IMG/VR virus record: IMGVR_UViG_3300014720_000016
Direction: 5' to 3' (one strand)
From: a virus
Length of the DNA: 64,000 nt
The translations under genes and the position numbers were made by a program. Below, piece after piece: positions 6,187-63,835 of the stretch. Each line of letters begins with the position of its first letter. Within the stretch, counting starts at the first letter, position 1. The notes beneath the pieces were generated by a model that had not been told where the DNA came from, did no database searches, and worked only from the letters and a program-made list of their open reading frames with translations.

Positions 6187-6209
6187 GGATCAGGCGGGAC
6201 CGGGTTTAG
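6187..6209 (-). promoter_or_regulatory. recurrent oriented motif (putative phage early promoter)
   Basis: GGATC-AGGCGGGA-CCGGGTTTAG. Confidence 0.65.
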
Positions 6210-6242
6210 GCCCGACCCGTGCTGATATAGGGGCGCAAACCG

Positions 6243-6773
6243 CTATCCTAGCCCCTGAGCCGACTGCGCTGCTTGGCGTGTATATTCGTACAGGATTACG
6301 TTGGCAGCTTGCGCGGCATTGATACAAAAGCCCACTCCGGGCATAGGAATGGCAATTATCTCGCTATTAAGTAGAATATCAGGGGGCACGCCAGTCTTTT
6401 CATTGCCAATAACAATACAGGTAGGCGTTTTCATATCAAAGGCATAGCTATGCAAGCTGGCTGCATCGGGATGCAGCTCTGCTGATAGCACCCGCATATC
6501 ATGCGCGGCACAATGCTCTAATAGATCGTGAGGATTAGAAAACTTCCTGATAGTTAGGAAGTCGCTTGTTGATCCTGATAGTTCTCGGAGTACCGCTGGC
6601 GGCGGGCAATCACCGATTATATTAACGGCTCGCGCGCCAAAGCAAGCCGCCGCCCGAATTAGATAGCCTATGTTTTCTTCACAACGGAAATTGACAGTAG
6701 CTACTTCTAGTGGATAGCATATGGCATTGGAAACTTTGGCAGAATATCTTTGTTTGCGAGTTTCACTTCGCAT
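6243..6773 (-). CDS. SpoU/TrmH-family RNA 2'-O-methyltransferase
   Basis: NIGYLIRAAACFG, VIGNEKTGV, IPMPG..INAAQAANVILYE SPOUT motifs. Confidence 0.9.
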   Translation of the reverse strand: MRSETRKQRYSAKVSNAICYPLEVATVNFRCEENIGYLIRAAACFGARAVNIIGDCPPPAVLRELSGSTSDFLTIRKFSNPHDLLEHCAAHDMRVLSAELHPDAASLHSYAFDMKTPTCIVIGNEKTGVPPDILLNSEIIAIPMPGVGFCINAAQAANVILYEYTRQAAQSAQGLG

Positions 6774-6786
6774 TAGTTAAGCGCCT

Positions 6787-7077
6787 TTACTTATCATTGG
6801 TACGCAATGGCGAGCCATTGAGATAATAGAATTCGTTGATTATATTTCCTGCTTCATCATGAACCGTAACCGCCGGCCCATCTTCCCGGTGCAGTAATCC
6901 ATTCTCTAGATAATCGCGATAGCGCAAGACACCGTTTTTAAACGTGAAAATGATTTGCCTGTATTTTGTGGCTGGTGGGTTTTCGTCAATGTAAATAACC
7001 ACATCGCCGTTAACCTTGCAGCGCCAGCCAGGCGGGCAGTTTACTATATAGTCGGCATGATACATCTTCATCGCCAT
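6787..7077 (-). CDS. MORN-variant/YwqK-like repeat protein
   Basis: YLENGLLHREDGPA..YYLNG. Confidence 0.65.
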   Translation of the reverse strand: MAMKMYHADYIVNCPPGWRCKVNGDVVIYIDENPPATKYRQIIFTFKNGVLRYRDYLENGLLHREDGPAVTVHDEAGNIINEFYYLNGSPLRTNDK

Positions 7078-7307
7078 AGTAGTACCTTGTTTTTAATAGT
7101 ACCATATGGCGGGCCTAGCTTGCTAGTTCACATAAGCGGCCTGATGAACAATAACGATCTCATCCTCAGGAACAGATACCTGAATAGAAATTTCATTTCG
7201 GGCAGACCCTGCGGGTGCATTATCAGCGCATGAAGCAATTAGCACAAATGCAATGGCAATAAAAATCTTGATCAAGATACAAACCCTTTCTGTAGAAAAT
7301 GGAGAAA

Positions 7308-7691
7308 TTACCACCACGAAGTATAGAACACAGCCTGCCCGTTGCTAAGTAGCTCACGAGCGGTTGCAATAAAACGCAAATCTTCCTGATCCTGATCATA
7401 GGTATCACGCATGGCCCCAAAGAAAAAGCCATCTGTTTTCGGCAGACAACTGCGCAGGATAACATCTTCTAGCGCCGCCAAATCTTCTTCAGTAAGCCTT
7501 ACTGCTGCGCAGTTGAATTCTTCTTGTCCGCCTTTTGAAATATAAAGGCGCTCCATCCAGCCCTGAAGGCCAGGGTGCTTGCGCCAGTAGGCGAACTCCT
7601 TGGAGTTATCTACTACCAAGTCTTCGAAACCAATCTGCTTGTCACCAAGCAGTTCAGCGGGACAATGACGAGCGTACTGATCCAATCCCAT
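7308..7691 (-). CDS. conserved phage hypothetical protein
   Basis: MGLD..YWRKHPGLQGWM..GFFFG..YTSWW pattern. Confidence 0.75.
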   Translation of the reverse strand: MGLDQYARHCPAELLGDKQIGFEDLVVDNSKEFAYWRKHPGLQGWMERLYISKGGQEEFNCAAVRLTEEDLAALEDVILRSCLPKTDGFFFGAMRDTYDQDQEDLRFIATARELLSNGQAVFYTSWW

Positions 7692-7703
7692 GCTAGTCTC
7701 CAA

Positions 7704-7877
7704 TCAATCTTTGATGTAGCCCTGCTCAAGAAGCTGGACAGCGGTACGACCGTACCAGCCCTGAAGGTTATACGCAGCTCCAGAGTCGTGGAGGTACTGC
7801 CAGGCAGCGATTACCTCTTCCTCGTTATCAACTTCCCGGTCGCCTTCGATAATTGAAACTGCCGAAAAAAGATCCAT
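7704..7877 (-). CDS. small conserved phage protein
   Basis: AWQYLHDSG..LQGWYGRTA pattern. Confidence 0.7.
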   Translation of the reverse strand: MDLFSAVSIIEGDREVDNEEEVIAAWQYLHDSGAAYNLQGWYGRTAVQLLEQGYIKD

Positions 7878-7896
7878 CTTAGATTCCACTGACACG

Positions 7897-8256
7897 CTAT
7901 TCTCCTGGTCCTTCAAGATATTCGAATTGAATTTCTAGCTGTTCGCACTTGGCGCGCAGATCGCGCACATGCTGGATAATAGTTGCATCATCAGGGCAGA
8001 CAGTGCTCCACTTGATACCTAGTGCATTAAGTACGCCTTCTGCAAGGTCTCCGGCCTGCTTGGCGCAGCCTTCGGCATAACTGCTTGCCGCATCCAGCCG
8101 CTTCTGACAGCGGAGTAGATCGTCTAAGATTTCCTTGTTGCAGGATTTCAGGCGTGCCACTTCGTCGCACAGGGCAAGCACATCGGCTGCCGCTCGTGAC
8201 AGATCAACTGATGAGCCACGGTACATTTGACGAATACATTCTTCGTCTAGCTTCAT
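7897..8256 (-). CDS. hypothetical coiled-coil protein, MKL start
   Basis: AGGAAG RBS; 39 nt downstream of motif 8295. Confidence 0.7.
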   Translation of the reverse strand: MKLDEECIRQMYRGSSVDLSRAAADVLALCDEVARLKSCNKEILDDLLRCQKRLDAASSYAEGCAKQAGDLAEGVLNALGIKWSTVCPDDATIIQHVRDLRAKCEQLEIQFEYLEGPGE

Positions 8257-8294
8257 ATCTTCCTTCTTGGAGTGTCGCCGAGCTGCGCCCGCCC

Positions 8295-8317
8295 GGATCG
8301 GGGGCGACCGGGTTTAG
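8295..8317 (-). promoter_or_regulatory. recurrent oriented motif
   Basis: GGATC-GGGGGCGA-CCGGGTTTAG. Confidence 0.65.
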
Positions 8318-8334
8318 GCCGGAGCCGGCCTAGT

Positions 8335-8361
8335 AAAAAGCCCCGCTGCGGGCGGGGCTTT
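8335..8361 (-). terminator. intrinsic terminator
   Basis: AAAGCCCCGC/GCGGGGCTTT hairpin with U-tract on minus strand right after the 8367 stop. Confidence 0.75.
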
Positions 8362-8366
8362 AGGAC

Positions 8367-9125
8367 TCAGTCTTCGCTTTCGGATTCTACTGCTGCCAGC
8401 CTATCTGACATATAGGCTTTAAGCCACTCTACTAGATCGGCAGTCTTGCCTGGATCGGCCTTGATTCCTTTTGCTATAATAGCCAGCTCATCAGCCTTGC
8501 GATGCAGAGCATCGGCTGGCCCGCGCTGTGGCGGTAGGTTTTCCAGCTTATCTAGCAGCTCGACAAAGTTATTTACTTTGTACTTCGCAGCATCAGCAGG
8601 ATCATAATCAAGGCCTATGATGCGCGACCAAAGAGACATTATCTCGCGCTCATCTTCCTGTCGAGCCTCTAGTTGCGACAGTATCATCTCATCGGCGGAC
8701 GCATCCAGTTTAGCAATCTCGCCTCGCAAAAGCTTAATCAGCTGATCATAGTTCTTGTAGTCTACTCCTGGCTTCCATGGGAAAGTAAGATTAATTGCAG
8801 TCCAAGTCCGGGGGTCTCCTACCTTGCCATTCTCAGGAATATCCTGTCCCTCTGAGCGAGGCGTTCGGTTTATGGCTTCAGCAATCTTTAGATACTTGTT
8901 AAGCAGCTTCTGTACCTGTAACATTTGCTGTGACTCTGCTTTGCGCTTAGCAGCTGATCCAGGTTGTTCATTACTAATCGTAGCTCCCTGAGTCATTTTT
9001 ATGTCATCGCCGCCAGCGTCAGTCATAGCTAGGACGATCTTGTCTAGCCTGTCCGCCAGGCCGGTATGGCCGCGGGTATCCAGCTCATTAGCAATCTTTA
9101 TCAAGCTCTTAGCAACACTCCTCAT
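8367..9125 (-). CDS. hypothetical protein with IANELD leader
   Basis: MRSVAKSLIKIANELDTRGHTGLADRLD; GGAGG RBS at 9130-9134. Confidence 0.8.
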   Translation of the reverse strand: MRSVAKSLIKIANELDTRGHTGLADRLDKIVLAMTDAGGDDIKMTQGATISNEQPGSAAKRKAESQQMLQVQKLLNKYLKIAEAINRTPRSEGQDIPENGKVGDPRTWTAINLTFPWKPGVDYKNYDQLIKLLRGEIAKLDASADEMILSQLEARQEDEREIMSLWSRIIGLDYDPADAAKYKVNNFVELLDKLENLPPQRGPADALHRKADELAIIAKGIKADPGKTADLVEWLKAYMSDRLAAVESESED

Positions 9126-9207
9126 GGCGCCTCCCATAGCTTTAAAGTTATCAAATAGTAATAGGCCGGCCATATTATATTGCCGGCCGGCAATCAATCG
9201 GCGCTAC

Positions 9208-9465
9208 TTAGCGGGGATTGCAAACATAGGGACGCAAATGCCGGGCTGCCTCGCAGGCAGCGATATGCTGGATTAGCTGCCCCTCAAACTGCTCAATTAG
9301 TCGAATATGCTCCTCAGGCAGCCGACCCATGTCAAGCGAGCTTACCACTAGCTGGCCGTGAGAGGGCGAGTACCATGTGGTTGCGGGTCGTACATCGCCT
9401 GGCCCAAAATCAAGAACCCAGCCAAAGTCAGGAACGCTAGGCTGCAAAGTAAGGGTGATGCTCAT
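9208..9465 (-). CDS. hypothetical protein
   Basis: GAGG RBS; fits minus-strand run. Confidence 0.6.
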   Translation of the reverse strand: MSITLTLQPSVPDFGWVLDFGPGDVRPATTWYSPSHGQLVVSSLDMGRLPEEHIRLIEQFEGQLIQHIAACEAARHLRPYVCNPR

Positions 9466-13132: not shown

Positions 13133-13155
13133 GGATAGGCGCGGCCCGGCTTTAG
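13133..13155 (-). promoter_or_regulatory. recurrent oriented motif (variant)
   Basis: GGATA-GGCGCGGC-CCGGCTTTAG; its TAA is the stop codon of the upstream gene. Confidence 0.55.
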
Positions 13156-16444: not shown

Positions 16445-16467
16445 GGATCGGGCCGCGCCGGCTTTAG
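16445..16467 (-). promoter_or_regulatory. recurrent oriented motif
   Basis: GGATC-GGGCCGCG-CCGGCTTTAG. Confidence 0.7.
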
Positions 16468-18577: not shown

Positions 18578-19744
18578 TCAGTCCTTCCACTTCACATTGA
18601 CAACATCGCCGAACGGAGCCTTGAAACCATCGTTGTTGACCACGACCCACAGGGTGGTGATCGGACATACGGGTTCGCGGAACAAATAGCCGTCCGTAAA
18701 GCACACAACACCACGATAACCATCGGCAACAGCGAGATCAAAGCCGGGCTGCATGTCAGTGCCGCCACGACCGGGGAAAGCAAGTTGCGCCGAGGGGCGG
18801 AACTTCTTGATCTTGCCATGCACGTCGGCATCGCAAAACACAACGTCAATCTGCATGATGCGAGTCATGAGATTGAGCTGGCCGCCGACATGAGCGAGAT
18901 ACGAATCGCTCATCGAACCCGAGGTGTCAACAATCGCAAGAATCTTATTCTTGACGGTTGTCTTCTCACCCTGGAACGGGAAGCCGAACCGCTTGCTGAA
19001 GCGCTTCCAAGTAAGGCGGCGCTTAGGATCAGCGATGCGAGCCATCCACATGCGGGCCTTGGCGCGCCAGTCGATGTCATGCGATTCCACTGAAAGAATT
19101 TCTTCAATCATGGAATCGGCCATGCTACCGGCCTTGAGCGTGCGGCCACGGTCAGCGTTGCGACCCATCAGGTAGCGGCGAGCCATTTCCTTGACGACTC
19201 GCGTGCCCGTTGTGTCATCTTCTTCGGACCAACCACTGTGGTCGTCCATGCCGTCACCGAACTGATCAGCAACCTCCTGCTCGGAGAACTTTTGCTTCAT
19301 AAGAGCATAGTACTCTTCCGAAGAAAGGCCGGCAGGGAAGTTGAAGCGCGGATCGGTGTGCGAGATACAGCCTTCCGGCAGATCCCAGTTGCCATGCTGT
19401 GGATCGGTGATCAGCTGATTGATCGCCATGTCCTTAGCAATGTTTTCTGTGCGGCGGCGATCTGGCTCCATAGTCAGTCGCGTCGTACAGTGCGAAAGCG
19501 CAACGTGCAGATACTCGTGCACGATAACGCCAATCTTCTCCCGGACAGAGAAGGAGTTCATCATCTTGGGGTTCATAAGCAGCGTGGGCTTGCCATGCTT
19601 TACGAAAACACCCGCTGCGAACTTCATCTCCTCGTCTTCGATAATCGTAGACTGGTGGAAGAAGTAAGCGATGAATGGCTCCTGATCGGTCATCTCCACG
19701 ATTTCGCCCGTGGAGAGGGACTTAAGATTCAAGAGAGAGGTCAT
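18578..19744 (-). CDS. metallopeptidase-like + vWA domain protein (DUF2201-like)
   Basis: HEYLH, NIAKDMAIN, DDH..W, DTSGS MIDAS, GRGGTD, FTDG. Confidence 0.85.
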   Translation of the reverse strand: MTSLLNLKSLSTGEIVEMTDQEPFIAYFFHQSTIIEDEEMKFAAGVFVKHGKPTLLMNPKMMNSFSVREKIGVIVHEYLHVALSHCTTRLTMEPDRRRTENIAKDMAINQLITDPQHGNWDLPEGCISHTDPRFNFPAGLSSEEYYALMKQKFSEQEVADQFGDGMDDHSGWSEEDDTTGTRVVKEMARRYLMGRNADRGRTLKAGSMADSMIEEILSVESHDIDWRAKARMWMARIADPKRRLTWKRFSKRFGFPFQGEKTTVKNKILAIVDTSGSMSDSYLAHVGGQLNLMTRIMQIDVVFCDADVHGKIKKFRPSAQLAFPGRGGTDMQPGFDLAVADGYRGVVCFTDGYLFREPVCPITTLWVVVNNDGFKAPFGDVVNVKWKD

Positions 19745-19824
19745 ACATATCCTTGGGCTTGGGTTTCAAAACGCCTGGTCCAACCAGGAACGGCGCCAAG
19801 AGCTGAGTCTTGGCGCCGATTGTA

Positions 19825-20991
19825 TCAGACACTCTTCTTCTTGCGACCACGCTTTGGCGCATCGTCGCTGTCAGCCGAGTCGGCTGGCGCCTCGGTAGAG
19901 GCAGCGGCGGTGGTACCATCGGCGGCGGGCTTAGCGTAGATCTTAGCCTTCGCATCAAGCAGCGCCCGGACAGCAGCCTTCAGATCAGGGCTCTTGTTGA
20001 TGATGTCACCGTGACGATCATCAAGTGCCTCGAAGAAGGCCGAGAAGGGCTCGTGACCCATGCGGCTGTAGAACAGGGCGGCGTTGATGCGCTGCTCGTC
20101 CTTGATGTCATCGCGGTTCATCACCTCCATGACATCGCGCAGAGCCTGGATAACCTGGGTAAGCTGGAAACCCTTGGGGCTCTTGAGCTTGCCGTTGAAG
20201 ATATCCATGATGTCCAGCGGCTTGAAGTTATCACGAACCCAGCTGGAGAACGTGTTGGCTGCAACCTCGCCAACAAACGGCGCTGAGTAAACCATCAGGC
20301 GGTTGTCGCGGCCAGCAACCTCCGACAGCGAATCACGAGTATCCTCGCGGTTCATCAGGGTACGACCGAGGAAGGTCCAGCTACGGCGGCTGGTGACAGC
20401 CTCGTTCGGAACACCACGCTTACCCTCGGGAATATCCAGAAGGTTCTTGTGCTGCGTGATGAACTGCACAACGGCGGGGTGAACGCCATTGGCAGGGTCG
20501 CTGGCCCAGCTAACCCACTCGGAAGAAGTGGGAGTGAACTCGACAATCGCAAAACGATTGCAGAGAGCCTGGTCGAGCGTAGCAGTCTGGTACTTCAGAC
20601 CGTTACCGGCAGCGAACACAATCGTGCTATCCGGCAGAGTACGACCGCCAGCACGACGGTCAAGGGTCAGCTGCATGGCGAGAGGCTGCATGTCCTCACG
20701 AGCACGGTCAATCTCGTCGAGGAAGAGAACAGCGTTCTCGAGATCGTACCACCAGGTCGGAGCAGCGTAGCGGGTAACGACGGTGCCGTCGGCGAGCTTA
20801 TCGACGAAAGGCATACCGACAAGATCAGCGGGCTCAAGCTCCGACAGGCGGAGGTCAACGACCCGCATGCCGCGCTTCTGAGCAATCATTCGCACCACGC
20901 TGGACTTACCGAGGCCAGCGTCACCAGTGAGCAGGCGAGCCTGCGTGGTGGGGAGGAGCGAATCGAAATCAATGAGCTGCGAGATGTCCAT
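19825..20991 (-). CDS. MoxR-like AAA+ ATPase
   Basis: Walker A GDAGLGKS, DLVGMP, Walker B LFLDEIDRA, AAGN, ALCNRF, SRRSW. Confidence 0.9.
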   Translation of the reverse strand: MDISQLIDFDSLLPTTQARLLTGDAGLGKSSVVRMIAQKRGMRVVDLRLSELEPADLVGMPFVDKLADGTVVTRYAAPTWWYDLENAVLFLDEIDRAREDMQPLAMQLTLDRRAGGRTLPDSTIVFAAGNGLKYQTATLDQALCNRFAIVEFTPTSSEWVSWASDPANGVHPAVVQFITQHKNLLDIPEGKRGVPNEAVTSRRSWTFLGRTLMNREDTRDSLSEVAGRDNRLMVYSAPFVGEVAANTFSSWVRDNFKPLDIMDIFNGKLKSPKGFQLTQVIQALRDVMEVMNRDDIKDEQRINAALFYSRMGHEPFSAFFEALDDRHGDIINKSPDLKAAVRALLDAKAKIYAKPAADGTTAAASTEAPADSADSDDAPKRGRKKKSV

Positions 20992-21175: not shown

Positions 21176-21198
21176 GGATCGGGCGGGGCCGGCTTTAG
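21176..21198 (-). promoter_or_regulatory. recurrent oriented motif
   Basis: GGATC-GGGCGGGG-CCGGCTTTAG. Confidence 0.7.
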
Positions 21199-22348: not shown

Positions 22349-22525
22349 TCAGTTGAGGGTGGCCGTCACTGTGCAATCCACAATAGGGGATTGCATGGAT
22401 GTCAGTTCGATCTCGGCCTGCTCGCGGAAAGAATCTACCATGGCATCACGAATAGCCCGGACCTCCTCAGGAGAAAGGCCATCATCAAGGCGGAAGTCAA
22501 GTACGACCGTTACATTCTTGCTCAT
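22349..22525 (-). CDS. 58-aa hypothetical protein
   Basis: Hand translation MSKNVTVVLDFRLDDG..*; ATGA-coupled. Confidence 0.65.
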   Translation of the reverse strand: MSKNVTVVLDFRLDDGLSPEEVRAIRDAMVDSFREQAEIELTSMQSPIVDCTVTATLN

Positions 22526-22818
22526 TTGGAGATCTTCTTTCTTTTGCGGCCATACCGCATAGTTATAGTACCAGGATTACTGATCTTGAAAAAATCACCA
22601 ACGTAGATAAAGCTATAAGCTGGAGACCAGGCAATGCACCCGCCACCTATTAACGCGATCACGATTTCGGGATCATGCTTGTAATCGTGGGTGCCGTCAA
22701 TATAGCGAAACTGACTAAGGTCTAGTTCTGTTCCGGTTTGACGTGCTACTATGGCAGCAGCAGCGAACGGATCGCCACTCCCAATTGCCATTAGGATCTC
22801 GGCCTCATCTAGCTTCAC
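22522..22818 (-). CDS. MKL family A small protein (GTG start)
   Basis: VKLDEAEILMAIGSGDPFAA..IAW. Confidence 0.75.
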   Translation of the reverse strand: MKLDEAEILMAIGSGDPFAAAAIVARQTGTELDLSQFRYIDGTHDYKHDPEIVIALIGGGCIAWSPAYSFIYVGDFFKISNPGTITMRYGRKRKKISK

Positions 22819-23024
22819 TATACCCACCATGCCCAATGGACGACCATGAAATCCTCAAGTGCTTCTTCGTCGCTGCCGTACTGGAAGTTCGGGCGGGCGA
22901 GGAGTGAGGATGCCACAGCGGCACGCTGCCGCGCAATGGCTTCGGCAACGGTCAGAGTAACCGTAACCGGCTCGCCATCTTCGCCCATCTCGTTGTACGT
23001 CAGCATATCGGACAGCGGCCTCAT
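22818..23024 (-). CDS. hypothetical protein
   Basis: TVAEAIA..SDEEALEDFMVVHWA; GAGG RBS. Confidence 0.7.
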   Translation of the reverse strand: MRPLSDMLTYNEMGEDGEPVTVTLTVAEAIARQRAAVASSLLARPNFQYGSDEEALEDFMVVHWAWWV

Positions 23025-23112
23025 TGCTTACCTCTGTTGCTTGTTACCACTATGCGCTATAGCCTTTCTCAGCATGGCGTTTGACCCGTTGCGGCGGGCC
23101 GGTCGCCCCTCG

Positions 23113-23135
23113 GGATCGGGCGGGGCCGGCTTTAG
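23113..23135 (-). promoter_or_regulatory. recurrent oriented motif
   Basis: GGATC-GGGCGGGG-CCGGCTTTAG. Confidence 0.7.
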
Positions 23136-23236: not shown

Positions 23237-24010
23237 ATGAAAATCTCGGTAATCATGCAGTCTTACTTGGGCGAATACCCCGGAGCCCGCAGCAACCCCA
23301 AATATAAATTTGTACGGGCAGTCAACAGTTTCCTGCTCCAAAAGCATCCCGATAAAGAGCTTATCATAGTCTCTGACGGCTGCGAGGACACTAAGGCGCT
23401 GTATGAGAACTGCTTCTCATCTTTTTCTAATATCAAATTCGCTTATGTCGGGCGCGGCGATCTGCCGCGGACTTATGAAGTAAAGGATAACAAGAAGCAC
23501 TTCCGCGGCATACCACGCGAGGTTGGCAGGACGCTCGCAGACGCTGACCTGATAACTTATATGGATGCCGATGACATCATGATGCCATCGCGACTATCGC
23601 ATATAAATGCAGGCTGGCAAAACGCAGATGCGTCCAAGCTGTGGTCATATAGCACGATTGTTCTTGAGCCGAAGAACGAAGCATTCAGTGCCGTCTCAAA
23701 CGATGAGATCGATCTGCGGTTGTTTGGGTTCCCAATCGATACGCCCGTGTCTATACACTCTCTATGTCCTCCCGGACATATGGCATCCGCGCCATGGCTA
23801 ATAGTTCACAGGCCGCAGGTGAAAGCCAAGTGGCAGGATACGTTCGACGAGCTTGACGAGAGCGGAAAGAAGGTTTCTGGTAGTAGCGAAGACGTGCGAT
23901 TCGTAGACGATCTTTACAAAGAATCCAGCGGCCATAAGTACGACTCGCCTACATACGTTCTCTGTCACCGTAAAGCTGCGGCATCGGGCCAAGGTTCTTG
24001 GGATATATAG
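23237..24010 (+). CDS. GT-A (GT2-like) glycosyltransferase
   Basis: MKISVIM..S, ELIIVSDG, R..G, YMDADD, SED; AGGAG RBS. Confidence 0.88.
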   Translation: MKISVIMQSYLGEYPGARSNPKYKFVRAVNSFLLQKHPDKELIIVSDGCEDTKALYENCFSSFSNIKFAYVGRGDLPRTYEVKDNKKHFRGIPREVGRTLADADLITYMDADDIMMPSRLSHINAGWQNADASKLWSYSTIVLEPKNEAFSAVSNDEIDLRLFGFPIDTPVSIHSLCPPGHMASAPWLIVHRPQVKAKWQDTFDELDESGKKVSGSSEDVRFVDDLYKESSGHKYDSPTYVLCHRKAAASGQGSWDI

Positions 24011-24019
24011 AGGAAAGTT

Positions 24020-24793
24020 TTGAGGATCTCAGTAATAATGCAGTCTTATCTAGGCGAGTATCCAGGAGCTAGAAGTAATCCTGGTTATAAGTTCGTGCGG
24101 GCCGTCAACAGCTTCCTACTCCAAAGGCACCCAGATAAAGAGCTTGTCATAGTATCTGACGGCTGCGAAGACACCAAGGCGCTGTACGAAAACTGCTTCT
24201 CGGACTTTGAGAATATAAAGTTTGCCTATGTCGGACGTGGAAATATGCCACGGATGAGACAGGTAAGGGACGGCAAGAGGCACTTCCGCGGCCTGCCGCG
24301 ACAGGTGGGCCGAACCCTGGCATCAGGAGATATAATCACCTACATGGATGCCGACGACCTAATGCTGCCTAATAGATTATCTCAACTCAATAGCGCGTGG
24401 CTACAAGCAGGCCCCGACAAAATATGGGCATACAATACAATGGTTGTCCAACCAAAGACACCTAGCTTTATACTAGCTACAGACTCCCCTATTGATCTGC
24501 GCCTATTTGGTTTTCCTATAAACGAGCCGGTGTACGCCGGCCATATGGCAAAGCCCGGATACATGATTGCATCTCCACCTGCCCTGTCTCATAGGCCAGG
24601 CGTCAAGAGCGAATGGAAAGATACTTACGAAGAGTCTGATGCAAATGGCAGGAAGATCGCTGGAGGCAGCGAAGACGCATCCTTTGTAGATGGACTTCGA
24701 TCAGAAGCTCCCGGCTGCAAGCACGACTCGCCATCGTACGTTGTTTGCCATTACAAAGGCGATCCATCGTGCCCAGGCGGCTGGGACATTTAA
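24020..24793 (+). CDS. GT-A (GT2-like) glycosyltransferase, tandem paralogue
   Basis: Same length and near-identical N-terminal half as 23237-24010; YMDADD. Confidence 0.88.
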   Translation: MRISVIMQSYLGEYPGARSNPGYKFVRAVNSFLLQRHPDKELVIVSDGCEDTKALYENCFSDFENIKFAYVGRGNMPRMRQVRDGKRHFRGLPRQVGRTLASGDIITYMDADDLMLPNRLSQLNSAWLQAGPDKIWAYNTMVVQPKTPSFILATDSPIDLRLFGFPINEPVYAGHMAKPGYMIASPPALSHRPGVKSEWKDTYEESDANGRKIAGGSEDASFVDGLRSEAPGCKHDSPSYVVCHYKGDPSCPGGWDI

Positions 24794-24814
24794 TCAAGGA
24801 TGTAACTGAAAGCT

Positions 24815-25969
24815 ATGACAAAAACAAACTCAAGAAAAGTTCGCATCGCCATAACCATAAACCTTACTGACCCGAACGCCTCCTTCTTTGGGAACGGTCT
24901 GCGCCAGAACGTAGTGACCCTACGCGACCTTTTTGAGAAGTGCGAGAACGTCTCGGACTCCTACATAGTAAACTTCTCTAATACGGTGTTCCCCCCAGAT
25001 TATAATGGTCCATGGAAGCCATACCTCCAGCATCTAATCTCTTTTGAAGATGCGCTAAAGAAATGCGACCTGTTGGTACTGGCTACTGCCAAACCTAACC
25101 CTGCCCAGGATGCCAAGATAAAGGCCGCGGGCATCAAGACGGTCAACCACATCATGGGGCCTGAGTTCGCCATCATGACTGAGCAGATCCTATTTAAGGA
25201 TGAGAAGCGCGGCCTTTATAGCAGGGATCGGGGCAGCGTATCTGCCACATGGATCTCTCCCCATTTCTTTGAGCGAGATCGCTGCCTGTTCGAGACAGTG
25301 AACGACTGCCCTTCTTATGAAGCGCCCTATGTCTGGAGCCCGACATTTATCGAGGCAGACGCACAGCGACTGAAAGACGGCGATCCTGCCAAGTATCCCG
25401 GTAAATACATTCCGGGCCGCAGCGCCAAGCGCATCTCTGTATTCGAGCCAAATATAAACGTCATCAAGACGAGCCTCGTCTCGGTAATGGCTATTGAGCG
25501 TGCCTACCGTCAGTGGCCAGAAGCGATTGAAACATCAAGCATCTTCTGCACATCTGGCATCGCAACCAAGCAGGATACCATAGACTTTGTAGGCGGCCTT
25601 GATGTCTATCGAGCCAAGAAGATGTTTTTCAATAAGCGCTATCCAATTACCTGGGCGCTACAAACCCACACAGACATAGTGCTCAGCCACCAGAACCAGT
25701 GCGAACTTAATTACTTGTGGCTAGATGCCGCTTGGCTAGGCTACCCCGTAATTCACAACAGCCCAATGATGCAAGACCTTGGCTGGTACTACCGGGACAA
25801 TGATATCGCTACCGCAGCCCGGCACATCAAAGACATTGTAGATTCTTTTGATGCTAAGCACGAGGAGTATCTTCATGCTTCTCGCGGATATGCGCGGCGC
25901 TTTATGATCGGCAATCATGCCAACGTACGCGGGTACGAGAAGCTCATCTCTCAGGTCATGGATTCCTGA
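24815..25969 (+). CDS. DUF2827-like putative glycosyltransferase
   Basis: NGLRQN, WSP, FEPNINVIKT, DIVLSHQ..LNY..GYPVIHNS pattern. Confidence 0.75.
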   Translation: MTKTNSRKVRIAITINLTDPNASFFGNGLRQNVVTLRDLFEKCENVSDSYIVNFSNTVFPPDYNGPWKPYLQHLISFEDALKKCDLLVLATAKPNPAQDAKIKAAGIKTVNHIMGPEFAIMTEQILFKDEKRGLYSRDRGSVSATWISPHFFERDRCLFETVNDCPSYEAPYVWSPTFIEADAQRLKDGDPAKYPGKYIPGRSAKRISVFEPNINVIKTSLVSVMAIERAYRQWPEAIETSSIFCTSGIATKQDTIDFVGGLDVYRAKKMFFNKRYPITWALQTHTDIVLSHQNQCELNYLWLDAAWLGYPVIHNSPMMQDLGWYYRDNDIATAARHIKDIVDSFDAKHEEYLHASRGYARRFMIGNHANVRGYEKLISQVMDS

Positions 25970-26011
25970 TCGGGCTGATGTAAAGGGAATGCTCAAGAAA
26001 CGAGGTCAACA

Positions 26012-27283
26012 TTGAAACTGATAGCCGTCTATAATGTGCCAGATCTTCCTAACCTGGAGTTCAACCATCGCAAGTATGCAGACCGCCATGGCTTGCAATT
26101 CGAACGAGTGGTTCTTGGAACTGACAGCCTCGCAGAGAGGTACTCCGCTTATCTAGAGGCACTACAGAAGAATCCGGGCGAAACAATCATGTTCGTTGAC
26201 AATCACACATACTTCGCCAACTTTGACTTCCTGCCACAGCCCGAAGGGGACTGTCTGCTCCAGAAGCATGAAGACACCTACATCACTGGTCTTTTCATAG
26301 TAAAGAGTAATGAGGCCACAGCCCTGTGTTTCGAGCAGGCCCTTATGCTAGTCAACAAGCATGGCTATATGATGGGCGGGTGGCAAGAGATCAAGCGGAG
26401 CAAGATGGTATTCCCGAAAGGCTTCTCTAAAGAATATCCGCATAAACAGGACGGAGTATACCTGTGCGCAACCGTCTATGCTCACAATAACATATTAACA
26501 GTGGCCGATCAAAAGGCGGTGCTCGCGGTCACGTTTGCACACGCAAAGATGAAACCAGACGAGTGCGATTATTACGCAGAGGCTATGTGCAGCAGGCAAG
26601 GCGCATCTCCAGCTATTCCAGCCGAAGGCTTTGAGTGCTTCAACCCAGGCGGCAAGCACGCCTTTGTAACCATGTACACGCCCAATATCGCTGAGATGGG
26701 TATCCTGTCCGAAGAAAATCTAAAACTTTATTGCGCCAAGAACGACATTACCTACTACATCTACCGCGGTGTTCCAGCCGATCTAGCTGCTGCCGGCGTA
26801 GCAGACGCATGGGTCAAGCCCTGGTTAATCCTAAAGCATTTCGATCCGCACGTCACCGTATCATGGATCGATTCAGATATACTTATTGGCCCGGACTGGA
26901 AGTTAGACTTCACCCGCGAAGTAGCCTGTTTCAAAGACCCGCTGTTTACTTTCAATTCAGGCTTTATGATGTTTGCCACTACAGATAAAAATCGTGCGCT
27001 GCTGGATGACGTGATCGCTAGCATCCGCGCAATCAACGGCAAGCTGGAAGGGGTATATAACCATGGCGGCGATCAGCCCCGGTTTATTGATGCCGTGCTC
27101 AAGCACTACCCGGGATATGCTCCGCTAAGCGCGCGCCTCGGCAATACGCATCCGGGCTTTCCAAGCTCGATACCTCCGGCAGCAACAGACAAGATGCTGC
27201 ACTTCATGGGGTATGCAAAGCCGATACGGACAGCGCTTATGGCAGGTTACTCCAGTGTGATGAACCGCAAGTATAAGTGCTAA
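26012..27283 (+). CDS. two-domain GT-A glycosyltransferase (GT34/Mnn10-like)
   Basis: WVKP, WIDSD (DxD), FNSG, GDQ, HFMG; degenerate N-terminal copy. Confidence 0.7.
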   Translation: MKLIAVYNVPDLPNLEFNHRKYADRHGLQFERVVLGTDSLAERYSAYLEALQKNPGETIMFVDNHTYFANFDFLPQPEGDCLLQKHEDTYITGLFIVKSNEATALCFEQALMLVNKHGYMMGGWQEIKRSKMVFPKGFSKEYPHKQDGVYLCATVYAHNNILTVADQKAVLAVTFAHAKMKPDECDYYAEAMCSRQGASPAIPAEGFECFNPGGKHAFVTMYTPNIAEMGILSEENLKLYCAKNDITYYIYRGVPADLAAAGVADAWVKPWLILKHFDPHVTVSWIDSDILIGPDWKLDFTREVACFKDPLFTFNSGFMMFATTDKNRALLDDVIASIRAINGKLEGVYNHGGDQPRFIDAVLKHYPGYAPLSARLGNTHPGFPSSIPPAATDKMLHFMGYAKPIRTALMAGYSSVMNRKYKC

Positions 27284-30906: not shown

Positions 30907-30929
30907 GGATCGGGCCGACCCGGCTTTAG
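30907..30929 (-). promoter_or_regulatory. recurrent oriented motif
   Basis: GGATC-GGGCCGAC-CCGGCTTTAG. Confidence 0.7.
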
Positions 30930-33639: not shown

Positions 33640-33974
33640 CGGGTTCTCCGGGGTTGCGGGTTCGTCGGGCTGGATCGGGCGGCACCGGGTTTAGGCCCGC
33701 CCCGGTGTGCCTTCAGGATGCCAGTGCGAATAGCCGCAGCATCTGACAGCACACGCTTGTAGACAAGCATCTCGGGCGCATCATCGGGCACGTCATCATG
33801 GACCAGTGATGCAGGTACTGAGGAGTAAGCAGACGGCTCGTCGCCATGACGCAGGATTACTGAGCCTCCCAATACCGAGCGCCAACAATACCAGCCATCT
33901 ACTTCTTCTCCGTCGAGCAGGTAGTGCCCAGTGAAAAGGCAATAGATGCAGTCGTGACGATACTTCGGTTGCAT
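33555..33974 (-). CDS. hypothetical protein whose 3' end reads through the motif
   Basis: P.YRHDC..C N-terminus; AGGAGG RBS. Confidence 0.65.
   Translation of the reverse strand: MQPKYRHDCIYCLFTGHYLLDGEEVDGWYCWRSVLGGSVILRHGDEPSAYSSVPASLVHDDVPDDAPEMLVYKRVLSDAAAIRTGILKAHRGGPKPGAARSSPTNPQPRRTRWTVLIPSILLLLLLAALFLATGVASFA
33672..33694 (-). promoter_or_regulatory. recurrent oriented motif
   Basis: GGATC-GGGCGGCA-CCGGGTTTAG. Confidence 0.7.
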
Positions 33975-35254: not shown

Positions 35255-35277
35255 GGATCGGGCGGCACCGGCCTTAG
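35255..35277 (-). promoter_or_regulatory. recurrent oriented motif
   Basis: GGATC-GGGCGGCA-CCGGCCTTAG. Confidence 0.65.
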
Positions 35278-39806: not shown

Positions 39807-40177
39807 GGCTTCTCACTTTGTTGGTTGCTCCGGGGTTGCTGCTGCGGATCGGGCGGGGCCCGGTTTAGCGCCGGGCCGACACGCAGCGTACCAATAGTAT
39901 CCACTACATGCACGCGCAGTACACTGCCGTCTTGCCAAAAAAGCATCGCCGATATGTTATCACCTATTCTACCTAGGTAGCCGAGGAACCTGCCTGTGCT
40001 GCGCAGTACTCCGCACACATCGCCGTCACTGCTCCGAAAAACCATAGCAGCTTCTGGTCTGGTACAAAAAATATCTACAAATTCTGCCGGCAGGCGCACA
40101 CCGAAATCGCCCTGAATGCAGGCTGCGACTTGCTCGGGGGTGCCATAGCACAGTATGCTTCGCTCATTTAGCTTCAT
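39803..40177 (-). CDS. MKL-start protein whose 3' end reads through the motif
   Basis: MKLNERSIL..GDFGV; tail GPALNRAPPDP is the translated motif. Confidence 0.65.
   Translation of the reverse strand: MKLNERSILCYGTPEQVAACIQGDFGVRLPAEFVDIFCTRPEAAMVFRSSDGDVCGVLRSTGRFLGYLGRIGDNISAMLFWQDGSVLRVHVVDTIGTLRVGPALNRAPPDPQQQPRSNQQSEKP
39846..39868 (-). promoter_or_regulatory. recurrent oriented motif (variant)
   Basis: GGATC-GGGCGGGG-CCCGGTTTAG. Confidence 0.6.
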
Positions 40178-40795: not shown

Positions 40796-41434
40796 TTACT
40801 CCTGTAGCGGTGGGTCAGTCCCGTTGTGAGCGGCATCCGATTCACCCGCTGCACGGTCCTGCGGATCGGGCGGGGCCGGCTTTAGGGCCGGGCCGACTGC
40901 CAGCGTACCGGCGCGGGTCAGCAAGGCCTGTAGCTGCTCTTGCTTTGATTTATTCAGTAGCCGCTTCCTGATGCTCCTTATGACACCGCCATAATACTTT
41001 CCTTGAAATTTTGCATCGCGCTCCCGCTTGGAGGTTAGTCGGATGCCGTACAAGGAATGAGCAACCGTAGATTGATTTAGTCCAATCTCCTTGGCGACCT
41101 CTCTCTGAGTCAAGCCCGCACCAAAGTGCAGCCGGACGCACTCCGCCTGCCTAGCGGTACAGCAGGTGTCCACTATATGCAGCAGGAAGGCCCAAAGAGC
41201 TTCCTGGGTCAGCACTGGCAGCGCATCAATCGCGCTGCAATCTGGAGCCAGATTTATTTTTGCTTCTACGGGATCTGGGCTTGTGCACATTGCGGCAAAT
41301 CTATTGCGGCTTACGGCAGCAGCATGACGAATATATGCAGAGCACTTCGGCGAACAATAGCCGCCAGAATTACTGCGATTAGGCCGAGATACAAAAGCCC
41401 CGCAAATGCGACATGAAAAACTCACCTGGGTCAT
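40796..41434 (-). CDS. zinc ribbon + sigma-70 region-4-like HTH protein
   Basis: CRICG..YCSPKC; TARQAECVRLHF..GLTQREVAKEIGLNQSTV. Confidence 0.7.
   Translation of the reverse strand: MTQVSFSCRICGAFVSRPNRSNSGGYCSPKCSAYIRHAAAVSRNRFAAMCTSPDPVEAKINLAPDCSAIDALPVLTQEALWAFLLHIVDTCCTARQAECVRLHFGAGLTQREVAKEIGLNQSTVAHSLYGIRLTSKRERDAKFQGKYYGGVIRSIRKRLLNKSKQEQLQALLTRAGTLAVGPALKPAPPDPQDRAAGESDAAHNGTDPPLQE
40863..40885 (-). promoter_or_regulatory. recurrent oriented motif
   Basis: GGATC-GGGCGGGG-CCGGCTTTAG, inside the 3' end of the HTH gene. Confidence 0.65.
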
Positions 41435-44555: not shown

Positions 44556-44578
44556 GGATCGGGCCGGTCCGCTTTTGG
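44556..44578 (-). promoter_or_regulatory. recurrent oriented motif (degenerate)
   Basis: GGATC-GGGCCGGT-CCGCTTTTGG. Confidence 0.5.
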
Positions 44579-46956: not shown

Positions 46957-46979
46957 GGATCGGGGGCCGCCGGTTTTAG
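46957..46979 (-). promoter_or_regulatory. recurrent oriented motif
   Basis: GGATC-GGGGGCCG-CCGGTTTTAG. Confidence 0.65.
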
Positions 46980-50268: not shown

Positions 50269-50291
50269 GGATCGGCCCGCACCGGCTTTAG
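50269..50291 (-). promoter_or_regulatory. recurrent oriented motif
   Basis: GGATC-GGCCCGCA-CCGGCTTTAG. Confidence 0.7.
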
Positions 50292-56683: not shown

Positions 56684-56706
56684 GGATCGGGGGCGACCGG
56701 CTTTAG
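56684..56706 (-). promoter_or_regulatory. recurrent oriented motif
   Basis: GGATC-GGGGGCGA-CCGGCTTTAG. Confidence 0.7.
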
Positions 56707-57567: not shown

Positions 57568-57582
57568 TTTTTATAGCCGGCC

Positions 57583-58650: not shown

Positions 58651-58673
58651 GGATCGGGCGGAACCGGGTTTAG
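58651..58673 (-). promoter_or_regulatory. recurrent oriented motif
   Basis: GGATC-GGGCGGAA-CCGGGTTTAG. Confidence 0.7.
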
Positions 58674-59233: not shown

Positions 59234-59256
59234 GGATCAGGGGACACCGGCTTTAG
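59234..59256 (-). promoter_or_regulatory. recurrent oriented motif
   Basis: GGATC-AGGGGACA-CCGGCTTTAG. Confidence 0.7.
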
Positions 59257-60450: not shown

Positions 60451-60473
60451 GGATCGGGCGGCACCGGGTTTAG
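60451..60473 (-). promoter_or_regulatory. recurrent oriented motif
   Basis: GGATC-GGGCGGCA-CCGGGTTTAG. Confidence 0.7.
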
Positions 60474-60987: not shown

Positions 60988-60996
60988 AAACACTCC

Positions 60997-61518: not shown

Positions 61519-61530
61519 GGCAATACCTCC

Positions 61531-61836
61531 TCAGTTGCGGTCACGAAAAACCGAGAAACTTACCCAGAGAACGTCCTCAAACTCCTTGATTGAGAACAGG
61601 TGAATGCCACGGCCTCGCACTCCGGCATCCTCTTTCAGTTGGCAGACCGGCTGGATGCCAAACACTCGGCGTACATCATCCGGCTCTTGACCTGCAATGT
61701 ACCGGAAGAAAGCCGCGCCAAAGTTTGGATTGTTTCTAATCCAAGCCTCACGGGTGCTCTCAGCACGCATCCAGTTGCGAATATCAGCGATGGTGCCGGT
61801 ATGAGCCGGCTTCTCTGCAACAATCACGAGACTCAT
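61531..61836 (-). CDS. hypothetical protein
   Basis: GAGG RBS; 30 nt after degenerate motif. Confidence 0.7.
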   Translation of the reverse strand: MSLVIVAEKPAHTGTIADIRNWMRAESTREAWIRNNPNFGAAFFRYIAGQEPDDVRRVFGIQPVCQLKEDAGVRGRGIHLFSIKEFEDVLWVSFSVFRDRN

Positions 61837-61865
61837 GGTATCCCTCGTTCGGTGGTTGCGGTAGA

Positions 61866-61888
61866 GGAGCGGGGTGACCCGGCATTAG
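61866..61888 (-). promoter_or_regulatory. recurrent oriented motif (degenerate)
   Basis: GGAGC-GGGGTGAC-CCGGCATTAG. Confidence 0.5.
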
Positions 61889-61964
61889 GCCCACCCGGTA
61901 TAACAGAGCGCAACCCGCTCTGCTACGCACTCGCCGTGTGCGGCGAGCGGCGTTCTGCACTTCA

Positions 61965-61987
61965 GGATCGGGCCGCACCGGCTTTAG
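61965..61987 (-). promoter_or_regulatory. recurrent oriented motif
   Basis: GGATC-GGGCCGCA-CCGGCTTTAG. Confidence 0.7.
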
Positions 61988-62270
61988 GCCCGACCCCGTC
62001 TGTCAGAATACCGCTTGTCACTAACAGCAATCAACAAACTTCTACCAGCTAAAGCAACAGAGTGCTGGCACATATCCCGCAGACAGCAAGCAGGTATGTA
62101 GTATATACCCGTACATACAGGTATATACCCGTAAAGAAAAGAAACTCTCTCCCTAGCGGTGTCGGGCGGTTTCACCTATATCCTTTCCGAAACTACCACC
62201 AGACAGAAAACTTTTGCAAAAAAACACGTCTAGCGATTATGTCAACCGGCATCTGGAGGGAAGGGAAAGG

Positions 62271-62565
62271 GGATCGTTTTCTACCGGCTTTAGGATCGCA
62301 ATAGTCAGAAAAAAAAGAAAACTGCTACAGGATCAGTTCCCACCGGCTTTAGTGCCAATAAGAAAATAAAGACACACCTATCCCGTCCCCGGTTGTCCCG
62401 TTGACACGCACGCAGGAGGATCGGTTTCCACCGGCTTTAGGCCAGATCCCGTTTGTCATGTACCAGCAAAGAGCAACCGCTAGGGGATCACAGGACACCG
62501 GCTTTAGGCCCAATGCCAGCTACCAGCAAGCCAACCCGATAAGGATCAACCCGCACCGGCTTTAG
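62271..62565 (-). repeat. cluster of five direct copies of the GGATC-N8-CCGGCTTTAG motif
   Basis: Copies start at 62271, 62330, 62418, 62485 and 62543 in A-rich non-coding DNA. Confidence 0.9.
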
Positions 62566-62739
62566 GCCAGATCCCGTCTGTCAGAATACAACTAGGAGAG
62601 ACAGCTACCAGGCAAAAAAAAGACAATAGTGCACCCGCCCCCGGTCGTCCCGTTGGCAAAAAAATGCAGGTTATTACCACTAGGGGCTTTCCCCTAGCAG
62701 GGGAAGGGAGCCGGGTTGCCCCGGCCCCCTCCCATCCGG

Positions 62740-63165
62740 TCACTTGACCTTGGCAACAACCGCTGCAAGGCGGTCGGCAAGGCGAAGCACCTCGGCACGG
62801 CTGGCTTCGGTACCAGCGGTACCTACCCCGTCAATCTTGACGGAGAGGCGGTCTGCGTTCTCACGCAGGAACTCAACACCCTTGTCAGTCAGGATGAGGT
62901 CCAGCGTCATCCCCACAAAGTGCGGGGCGTAGAGGGTGGTTGGGAAGCGGGCACTGGTCCCGTAGATGCTAATGCACCCCTTCTCTGAAACCTTGGCTGA
63001 GTACCCTCGTACCCCGCCAGCCTTGGCCTTCTCAGCGGCATCGGCTCGCGCCTTCTCCGCTGCCAGTGCGGCCTGAGCCGCCTGCAACTGGGCAAGCAGG
63101 GCAGCCACATCCGGGCTGGTGGCAGTGTTATTGGCGACGGGCGTTCCGACCTTGATGAGCGTCAT
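62740..63165 (-). CDS. KVSEKG..FP.TLY family protein (paralogue of 49741-50157)
   Basis: MTLIKV start after GGAG; GYSAKVSEKGCISIYG..FPTTLYAPHFVG. Confidence 0.8.
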   Translation of the reverse strand: MTLIKVGTPVANNTATSPDVAALLAQLQAAQAALAAEKARADAAEKAKAGGVRGYSAKVSEKGCISIYGTSARFPTTLYAPHFVGMTLDLILTDKGVEFLRENADRLSVKIDGVGTAGTEASRAEVLRLADRLAAVVAKVK

Positions 63166-63266
63166 GGTGCTCTCCCTTGTATTCAGGCTCCACAGGCTAC
63201 CCGACCACCGGGCACCCCGCTTCACCTTTGCGACCCCATGTGTGGGGGCCGCCGTTCTGCTCAAGA

Positions 63267-63835
63267 GGATCGGGCCGCACCGGCTTTAGGCCCGACCCCG
63301 ACTGTCAGGAAACAATCGACAAAATATCATATGCAAACCTGCAAACCTGTCAGGTGCCAGATGCCATCCCCTAAGAAAACCCAAAGGGGATCAATCAGCA
63401 CCGGCTTTAGTGTCAGTAAAAAAATAACAAGTTATCACATGCCAAACCCTAGCAGGATCACATACCACCGGCTTTAGTACCAAGTGACAGCGACAATAGT
63501 AGCCCCGCCCCCGGTTGTCCCGTTGGCATAATCAAAAAAAGATAACAGCCACACCATGTAGGTGCTGGTAGTATAACAGGCTATAGCCTGCCGCATAGGT
63601 TTATAAGTATGCCTCTACCCGTAGGGAGACAGATCGCGCACACATGAGGATCGTTTTCCACCGGCTTTAGTCCCGGTCACAATATCAGAAAAACTTGCAA
63701 ACCCTAGCATGTCTAGTCAAATGATTATGGTTCTCAACCTCACTATCCTTTCCTAGCTAATAGCAGATACACCCCTCCCGCCCCCGTTTGTCACGTTGGC
63801 ACGCACGCATGAGGATCGTTCGCAACCGGCTTTAG
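63267..63835 (-). repeat. cluster of five direct copies of the motif
   Basis: Copies start at 63267, 63388, 63455, 63648 and 63813. Confidence 0.9.

Follow-up and report, generated by a model that had tools for sequence, protein, structure and literature searches.

The present analysis concerns a repeated and strictly spaced DNA element, CTAAA followed at a fixed distance by GATCC, in a 64,000-nucleotide stretch of viral DNA (IMG/VR record IMGVR_UViG_3300014720_000016), the whole of which is referred to here as the window. Two near-invariant boxes held at a rigid distance are the conserved feature of this element, which is regarded, with moderate confidence, as a phage-specific promoter—a bipartite signal in duplex DNA heading operons and, in places, single genes. 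This reading is inferred from the anatomy of the element, and the same applies to the transcription start, its position and the factor reading it. The traits resembling those of a promoter are the rigid pair of boxes, the position ahead of gene blocks, the presence of one copy per gene in an array of a related genome, the tandem copies in non-coding DNA and the restriction to one class of genes.

The window comes from an uncultured freshwater jumbo phage of ~370 kb, of which it is the non-structural arm. It carries ~146 sense-strand genes, mostly small and separated by a median gap of 12 nt, among them those for an RNA ligase, an M16 peptidase, a MoxR-type ATPase with a VWA/DUF2201 partner, glycosyltransferases, a metallophosphatase and an R2K ATP-grasp protein; the scan for tRNA-like and known RNAs gave two tRNAs only. 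Among deposited phages, no DNA match to the window was found and the proteins reach 25–42% identity at most. A relative was recovered by a motif scan of IMG/VR as a complete contig of 371,675 bp with direct terminal repeats (hereafter G001), which is broadly syntenic with the window and 70–85% identical to it in nucleotides where the two can be aligned.

Concerning the number of copies, the window matches the pattern GGATC-N8-CCGGSTTTAG, as written on the plus strand, exactly at 25 sites, whereas dinucleotide shuffles predict 0.00; with up to two mismatches allowed, there are 30 matches against 0.28 expected. A profile hidden Markov model (HMM), built from the aligned copies and used on the window, G001 and metagenomic loci, finds 31 copies in the window, 30 of them in the gene sense (minus strand) and one reversed. 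The 21 sites listed by the original prediction, made from the letters of the window, are all real, the one at 44556 being diverged, and its two half copies are indeed halves, position 397 retaining only the GATCC half and position 57577 only the CTAAGGCCGG half. It overlooked, however, a dense cluster of ten sense copies at 62271–63835 along with the complete reversed copy at 63900–63922; the claim that all copies are co-oriented thus holds for 30 of the 31.

The anatomy of the element was derived from the ungapped alignment of 72 copies from the window and G001, numbered from the C of CTAAA as +1. The consensus reads T.rCAGg.CGsscCGGsC, followed by CTAAAGCCGG, nscCsCCCGATCC and TGw.GggCG, with 1–1.9 bits per position in the boxes; the strongest conservation is confined to the blocks from -5 to +10 and from +17 to +25, C+22, C+23 and G+19 being conserved in 97–100% and T+24 in 71% of copies. 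The element is longer than the 23 bp proposed originally, its conservation extending over ~50 nt from -18 to +32, with none upstream of -19. The spacing claimed to be invariant is essentially so: the 13 nt from CTAAA to GATCC are free of insertions and deletions in the 72 aligned copies; a 1-nt insertion is possible in very few copies, e.g. G001 62541 and 36278. A pyrimidine-purine step (C-G/A) is conserved at +31/+32, in many copies C(A)GAAC follows at +31 to +36, and the Shine–Dalgarno sequence (SD) never starts before about +33. Potential stop codons in all three frames are found within the element (TGA/TAG at -18 to -13, TAA at +2 to +4, TGA at +24 to +26), and upstream genes often terminate on these built-in stops. 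Orthologous elements are 0.56–0.90 identical, versus 0.16–0.71 for their flanks.

Three classes of the element differ mainly in the spacer. Class A, covering the dispersed copies, has a GC-rich spacer, a 5' arm rich in G and a 3' arm rich in C; class B, represented by the tandem copies of the 62–64 kb cluster, has AT-richer spacers; and class C, with at least 13 clear copies at 350–363 kb of G001, reads ccGGTC-CTAAA(A/G)ACA-(AT-rich)-TGATCC-TGTTAGAC.

The distribution in G001 shows what the element marks. There, forward copies number 76 according to the profile HMM, with a single credible one in reverse; together they occupy the stretch that starts at 350.8 kb, crosses the terminus and ends at 123 kb, i.e. 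the small-ORF (open reading frame) arm of about one third of the genome, and there are zero copies in the ~227 kb between 123 and 350 kb, where the replication and structural genes lie on the same strand. Since the element is confined to one arm despite co-oriented genes elsewhere, it marks a gene class rather than a strand or replichore; an orientation following the replichore had been named beforehand as an outcome that would speak against a promoter, and in G001 the element tracks the gene class instead. With regard to metagenomes, a stringent 20-base pattern recovered 29 stretches on lake-type metagenome contigs of the Joint Genome Institute and one 2.9-kb contig binned in a metagenome-assembled genome of Geobacteraceae. 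The profile counts 234 copies, 168 of them unique, in the metagenomic loci, with one dominant strand per locus; six of the loci hold exactly one opposite-strand copy each, as do the window and G001. It should be noted that assigning a host by the Geobacteraceae contig was considered and given up, this single match being too weak to use.

The position relative to genes is equally regular. The stop codon of the upstream gene lies just ahead of the element or within it, and the distance from GATCC to the next start in the window is 24, 26, 29, 30, 32, 35, 38, 40, 41, 45, 46 or 51 nt, with a tail at 69–184 nt; the original description, by which a start codon with a good SD follows after 20–50 nt, is thus correct for most dispersed copies but not for this tail. 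In G001 the distance from GATCC to an SD-led start has a median of 36 nt and is mostly 19–50 nt. Among the sense gaps of the window, an element is present in 16 of the 37 that measure at least 60 nt versus 1 of the 108 shorter ones, and the elements bound blocks of 2–19 genes. At 350.8–361.7 kb of G001 there is essentially one copy per small gene (55–170 aa), placed 18–58 nt before an SD-ATG. A hairpin with a T-run stands immediately 5' of some copies (window 8295, G001 56373), so that transcription of the next gene has to begin inside the element or in the short leader behind it.

A DNA signal with no role in transcription—a site nicked on one strand, or a polar site of replication, packaging or segregation—would agree with the strict orientation on a single strand, the GATC and CCGG palindromes within the element and the dense array near the assembled genome end. 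Such a function is nevertheless highly improbable, given the tight tie to start codons with one copy per gene in the array, the lack of copies in 227 kb of co-oriented DNA and the otherwise ordinary frequencies of GATC and CCGG.

The element might also act in RNA. The arms of class A can pair as a long imperfect hairpin, CAGG-TCGG...CCGGsC[CTAAA]GsCCGG...CCGA(T)CCTG, and 63 of the 72 copies fold with CTAAA in the loop (mean z-score versus shuffles -1.6), the CAGG...CCTG ends being able to close a long stem. A GC-rich hairpin with a CUAAA loop, located between genes or in the 5' leader of long polycistronic transcripts, could then direct processing, stabilise the RNA, bind a protein or mediate antitermination, for which the strict sense orientation would be fitting. 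Two further observations are in its favour: one clean compensatory change between orthologous copies (window 50269 versus G001 11890) and, among 246 unique copies with 21 candidate pairs, covariation of the pair -2:+7 (0.67 compensated versus 0.18 expected), which may be a subfamily signature. The remaining 20 of the 21 pairs, however, are compensated at the level of chance, and the outer stem is paired in 36–50% of copies. The folds of class B are weak, and class C, whose AT-rich spacer is incapable of pairing, retains both boxes at the usual distance and still lies ahead of genes. Swapping the arms between copies has a small effect (native -16.4 versus chimeric -15.0 kcal/mol; native median rank 0.46), sense and antisense strands fold equally well without a G-U signature, and no Rfam family matches the element or the cluster. 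Together with the rigid spacing free of indels and the tandem arrays in non-coding DNA, this makes an RNA-level element decidedly unlikely; the hairpin as the functional core was rejected as the main reading in view of the class C copies, the arm swap, the strand comparison and the pair-by-pair compensation. With the hairpin dispensable and the boxes invariant at a rigid distance, the evidence points to recognition of duplex DNA. The GC-rich, hairpin-capable spacer of the dispersed copies is an optional trait, which may adjust the strength or timing of the promoter or fold in read-through RNA from the upstream gene.

It has also to be considered that the copies are recombination cassettes resembling the promoter early stem-loops (PeSLs) of T4-like phages, i.e. 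repeated modules at which homologous exchange would shuffle the small ORFs of the hyperplastic arm, with promoter activity secondary or inherited. Only 31% of the window aligns to G001, most orthologous copies share just one flank, in 4 of the 17 dispersed copies, versus 0.66 expected, the element (-5 to -12) is precisely where homology sets in, the element carries stops in three frames, and PeSLs provide a precedent (PMC2839356; PMC4122927). Although this would explain how copies spread, it does not explain near-invariant boxes at a fixed spacing and a fixed distance from starts; moreover, the enrichment of breakpoints rests on 4 cases and the idea is compatible with a promoter, thus no true alternative. 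As the explanation of the element it is quite improbable, and the cassette behaviour is taken as a secondary property compatible with the promoter reading.

If the element is a promoter, its reader has to be sought. Jumbo phages devoid of their own RNA polymerase are expected to put their own sigma factor on the host polymerase (PMC13282480). The original prediction of a promoter stands with respect to promoter anatomy and to a signal at the DNA level; its phage-encoded RNA polymerase was not found in the complete G001 by searches for single-subunit, N4-type and beta/beta' enzymes, and the sigma factor it proposed as the other option is supported only in part. The families PF00562 (beta domain 6) and PF00623 (beta' catalytic domain) gave no match in G001 while their positive controls worked; PF00940 (single-subunit RNA polymerase) gave none either, in a search without a positive control. 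The DFDGD-type motif is absent from all frames of G001, and phmmer with the T7 RNA polymerase, the N4 RNA polymerase II and the N4 virion RNA polymerase returned nothing from G001 and the window, the best E-value for the T7 enzyme being 0.6. With no RNA polymerase found in the lineage, a phage enzyme is unlikely, and the host core RNA polymerase with a phage-encoded specificity factor is the most likely reader.

The leading candidate for that factor would be a sigma resembling those of the extracytoplasmic function (ECF) type, encoded in the replication module of G001 (177957–178745) and not within the window. It is a two-domain protein with an invariant four-Cys (zinc-ribbon) insert between the domains, matching TIGR02937 (ECF-type superfamily) with E = 3e-6 over regions 2 and 4. 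Its AlphaFold model has a mean predicted local distance difference test (pLDDT) score of 68, and sigma factors lead the fold search (sigmaH, sigmaD and ECF sigmas L, H and E); for the sigma4 domain, template modelling (TM) scores are 0.79–0.87. The gene is surrounded by SbcCD-like genes, a gene for a Cas4-like nuclease, that for a protein of 2,100–2,700 aa, a trigger-factor-like gene and that for DNA Pol III alpha, and this neighbourhood is kept in relatives down to 47% sigma identity; the sigma-bearing contigs in IMG/VR are fragmentary only. The start of the giant protein (2,086–2,698 aa) overlaps the sigma stop (G001 177957–186807, L066; L070 10001–17009; L072 10001–17042). These giant proteins are 19–24% identical to each other, have no Pfam, PHROG or PDB sequence match and no DFDGD motif, and their homologues are all annotated as hypothetical.

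Three further proteins with a sigma4-type helix-turn-helix (HTH) are encoded at window 40796–41434 (minus strand), G001 22490–23071 and G001 205941–206375, the first two being orthologues, and these paralogues share the C-terminal motif G(K/R)YYGG..(K/R)(K/S)I(K/R)K. The window protein, judged by its sequence, is a candidate DNA-binding reader or activator, and the sigma4-only HTH proteins in general would be alternative or auxiliary readers. One way in which they could act is an activator-dependent promoter in the style of T4 middle promoters: a sigma4-type HTH protein (e.g. that of window 40796–41434) would bind CCGGsCCTAAAGCCGG and the host polymerase with its primary sigma would use GATCCT, having A at position 2 and T at position 6, as a weak -10, starting about 7 nt downstream. 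Such proteins are encoded within the arm and the window, the 12-bp gap from CTAAAG to GATCCT resembles the geometry from the MotA box to the -10 in T4 middle promoters, and the C-G/A step at +31/+32 suits a start 7–8 nt past the hexamer. The conservation within the hexamer is, however, the reverse of what would be expected, C+22, C+23 and G+19, unimportant to sigma70, being nearly invariant while the key T+24 is not; in addition, the binding of an HTH protein to the element is a prediction, and no support comes from AsiA-like or other anti-sigma proteins. This variant is accordingly held to be unlikely.

With regard to known sigma classes, the original claim that the motif matches neither the sigma70 nor the sigma54 consensus was borne out: the 72-copy logo contains no hexamers like TTGACA-17(+/-1)-TATAAT and no conservation upstream of the element, consensus scans gave no enrichment, and the GG -24/GC -12 signature (TGGCAC-N5-TTGCW) is absent. 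The sigma28/FliA promoter has the form TAAA-N15-GCCGATAA, of which TAAAG and CCGAT in the two boxes are reminiscent. The gap between these is, however, 10 nt in every copy instead of 15, half a helical turn short, and the element is therefore not a sigma28 promoter.

The promoter reading preferred here, with host core polymerase and a phage specificity factor, would be closest to the ECF type. ECF promoters have spacer optima of 14–17 bp and a homopolymeric A/T tract at -30 to -26, adjoining the -35 core, which determines selectivity (PMC5758882), and they are stringent in both sequence and spacer length, unlike sigma70 promoters (10.1101/534826). Should transcription start at +31/+32, GGsCC would occupy -35 to -31, the TAAA tract -30 to -27 and CGATCC -14 to -9, leaving a rigid 16-bp spacer. 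The element, as GGsCC-N16-CGATCC, resembles the promoters of ECF group 4 (GGAAC-N16/17-CGTC; PMC5758882; 10.1101/534826) in having two short near-invariant boxes, a rigid spacer falling within 14–17 bp (N16, no indels in 72 copies) and an A/T tract directly 3' of the -35 core, and the candidate reader is likewise a two-domain sigma2+sigma4 protein. It differs in that conservation reaches about +5 beyond the inferred start.

Several points weigh against the promoter reading in this form. The ECF hallmark bases AAC (-35) and CGT (-10) are replaced in the element, and the very strong conservation of TAAAGCCGG, equal to that of the boxes although the ECF model places it in the spacer, is explained only in part. 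The G001 sigma scores below the curated cut-offs, both for TIGR02937 (26.9 versus 42.9 bits) and for Pfam region 2 (19.9 versus 24). Its gene lies outside the arm with the elements, in the replication module, and has no element upstream, which is awkward if the arm is the earliest class; possibly other genes are expressed before the arm, the virion brings the sigma along, or the reader is another protein, e.g. a sigma4 HTH protein. The giant ORFs without a detectable fold could possibly be a cryptic, unrecognisable polymerase. Finally, 21 of the 37 window gaps of at least 60 nt carry no element, showing that other signals exist.

The individual copies of the window, and the gene of the HTH protein, are listed below by coordinates and strand, distances being those to the start codon downstream.

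6187–6209, minus: class A with GC-rich spacer, exact match; HMM E = 4e-7
8295–8317, minus: class A, exact; SD-ATG at 38 nt; hairpin and T-run directly upstream
13133–13155, minus: one mismatch; found by pattern and HMM
16445–16467, minus: class A, exact; ATG at 40 nt; orthologue of G001 40636
21176–21198, minus: class A, exact; heads the MoxR ATPase/VWA gene block; G001 homology begins at the element
23113–23135, minus: class A, exact; back to back with the plus-strand glycosyltransferase island
30907–30929, minus: class A, exact; ATG at 26 nt
33672–33694, minus: class A, exact; ATG at 32 nt; G001 homology begins at the element
35255–35277, minus: one mismatch; ATG at 46 nt
39846–39868, minus: one mismatch; ATG at about 39 nt
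40796–41434, minus: gene of a 212-aa protein combining a Cys-rich zinc ribbon at the N-terminus with a sigma-70 region 4 HTH; Pfam Sigma70_r4 26.7 bits versus a cut-off of 24.1
40863–40885, minus: class A, exact; overlaps the 3' end of the sigma4-HTH gene; orthologue of G001 23049
44556–44578, minus: diverged copy, CCAAAAGCGG...GATCC; HMM E = 0.007; orthologue of G001 17888
46957–46979, minus: one mismatch; GTG at 45 nt; orthologue of G001 14092
50269–50291, minus: class A, exact; orthologue of G001 11890, from which it differs by the one compensatory stem change
56684–56706, minus: class A, exact; precedes the metallophosphatase gene; ATG at 24 nt
58651–58673, minus: class A, exact; ATG at 51 nt
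59234–59256, minus: class A, exact; ATG at 30 nt
60451–60473, minus: class A, exact; ATG at 35 nt; G001 homology begins at the element
61866–61888, minus: two mismatches; ATG at 29 nt
61965–61987, minus: class A, exact; within the 78-nt repeat D5
62271–62565, minus: five tandem class B copies (62271, 62330, 62418, 62485, 62543), exact; non-coding, no long ORFs
63267–63289, minus: exact; precedes the first sizeable ORF of the arm (62740–63264); GTG at 41 nt
63388–63835, minus: four class B copies (63388, 63455, 63648, 63813), exact
63900–63922, plus: the sole reversed complete copy, back to back with 63813; found by pattern and HMM

The half copy at 397–419 retains the GC-rich spacer, GATCC and a downstream SD-ATG, its CTAAAG half being replaced by AT-rich DNA with the word TAGAAT; the upstream box may have been swapped there for a host-type promoter.

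The cluster at 62–64 kb is non-coding, with copies of the element 58–88 nt apart, and contains two further kinds of repeat. The first, D3, is a 43-nt family with window copies at 62363, 62615, 63485, 63758 and 63950 (62363–63992, minus strand), reading roughly CAACGnGACAAnCGGGGGCGGG...CTATTGTC on the minus strand and following GATCC by 12 nt in two units; it also occurs in G001 at 361.7–362.1 kb. Examined as an intrinsic terminator, which would have pointed to short units of transcription, it shows a small conserved stem-loop with a T-run after only some copies, and its copies may be small RNAs or leader motifs. The second, D5, consists of two 78-nt segments (61934–62011 and 63236–63313) that are 83% identical, each comprising an element with both flanks, and is a recent duplication inside the control region; each segment precedes a member of a paralogous ORF family beginning 'M(T/S)LIKVGTP...', which is also present in G001. 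Back-to-back divergent pairs of elements, about 35–65 nt apart, are found at window 63813–63922, where the palindrome ggcataccatatg...catatggtacggc lies between them, and at G001 361862–361960, with the reversed copy at 361862–361893. Downstream of the reversed copy, both genomes have just an antisense D3 repeat and no SD-led start; this copy may give a convergent sense/antisense RNA pair with the D3 unit. The assumption that the reversed G001 copy serves four minus-strand ORFs was withdrawn, coding potential being weak on both strands; the region around it is filled by forward copies with plus-strand SD-ATG genes. The best sigma70-like match of the control region, CTGACA-16-TATGAT (10/12; 63353–63326, minus strand), is located about 35 nt upstream of the 63267 element and is a possible entry point for the host polymerase.

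As for the array at 350.8–361.7 kb of G001, it has 64% GC in a genome of ~50% GC, its small genes are monocistronic with a codon usage unlike that of the rest of the arm, and a GC hairpin whose loop is rich in T stands ahead of each of its class C elements. In the intergenic gaps at 125–349 kb of the same genome, the word CTATTAA(A/T) is enriched (9 observed versus 1.25 expected), several copies directly following terminator hairpins. It may be part of another promoter class; CTATTAA as a second promoter word for the rest of G001 was dropped, having no genome-wide strand bias (13 versus 14).

Some features of the window itself deserve mention. Among the 146 called sense-strand genes, 65 (1024–59528, minus strand) start with Met-Lys-Leu or Met-Lys-Ile, many abutting the preceding gene. 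The genes for the MoxR-type AAA ATPase and its DUF2201/VWA partner (18578–20991, minus strand) form a pair also known from N4-like phages (N4 gp24/gp25), yet here it occurs without N4-type polymerases. A plus-strand island at 23237–27283 comprises two GT2 glycosyltransferases, a DUF2827 protein and a 423-aa ORF; as it contains no element in its own orientation, a different type of promoter presumably drives it.

Joining these threads, one might imagine a freshwater jumbo clade that drives ~100 genes, a third of its genome, from one bipartite promoter read by an undescribed zinc-ribbon ECF-like sigma on the host core enzyme, the sigma, whose gene lies outside the arm, possibly being a late product that enters the cell with the virion. 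Timing or strength would depend on the three spacer classes, small RNAs would arise from the tandem arrays and the one convergent antisense copy close to the genome end, and the cassettes would be recombination joints shuffling the ORFan repertoire; taken as a whole, this composite picture is tentative and rather doubtful. The hyperplastic small-ORF arm probably holds genes for host takeover and anti-defence. Most jumbo phages are without their own polymerase and are assumed to redirect that of the host by their own sigmas, few such promoters having been defined and none in uncultured lineages. The element represents a clean, highly repeated promoter candidate for which possible readers can be named, the spacer varies naturally in three ways and the regulon is defined. 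If true, it would offer a ready-made orthogonal pair of sigma and promoter, make it possible to assign the genes of metagenomic jumbo phages to temporal classes from sequence alone, and extend the PeSL idea of regulatory cassettes as shuffling joints beyond the T4-like phages.

Compared with other repeated elements, the one described here shares with the 23-bp promoters of T7 and those of the N4 virion RNA polymerase a strict orientation, high conservation, a length of ~23 bp or more and tandem copies near the genome end, N4 moreover using a DNA hairpin. T7 promoters are, however, continuously conserved, whereas the element has an 8-nt variable core and no single-subunit polymerase is detectable; the N4 hairpins (stem of 5–7 bp, loop of 3 nt) are required, whereas that of the element is optional, and no N4-type polymerase is detectable either. 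The hallmarks of integron attC sites, i.e. the inverse core RYYYAAC and the core GTTRRRY, are absent from the logo, no search for an integrase having been made. With the PeSLs (PMC2839356; PMC4122927) it has in common that short, repeated, stem-loop-capable cassettes flank small ORFs in hyperplastic regions, some homology breakpoints lying at the cassette; PeSLs nonetheless carry early promoters of the sigma70 type, while the element has no sigma70 hexamers, its stem-loop is dispensable and potentially formed in class A only, and the phage lineage is another one.

The closest phage counterparts are the systems of phiEco32 gp36 and phage 7-11 (PMC4331800), in which a conserved phage-specific motif precedes a defined gene class, a phage sigma works without a phage polymerase and the motif was found by intergenic comparison. 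The element differs from them in its ~75–110 copies per genome versus a handful, in being bipartite over ~50 nt with three spacer classes, and in governing a small-ORF arm rather than middle or late structural genes; the candidate sigma has a zinc-ribbon insert and its link to the motif is a predicted one. A promoter of the phage sigma type on host polymerase is thus of a known kind, while the sequence and layout seen here are new.

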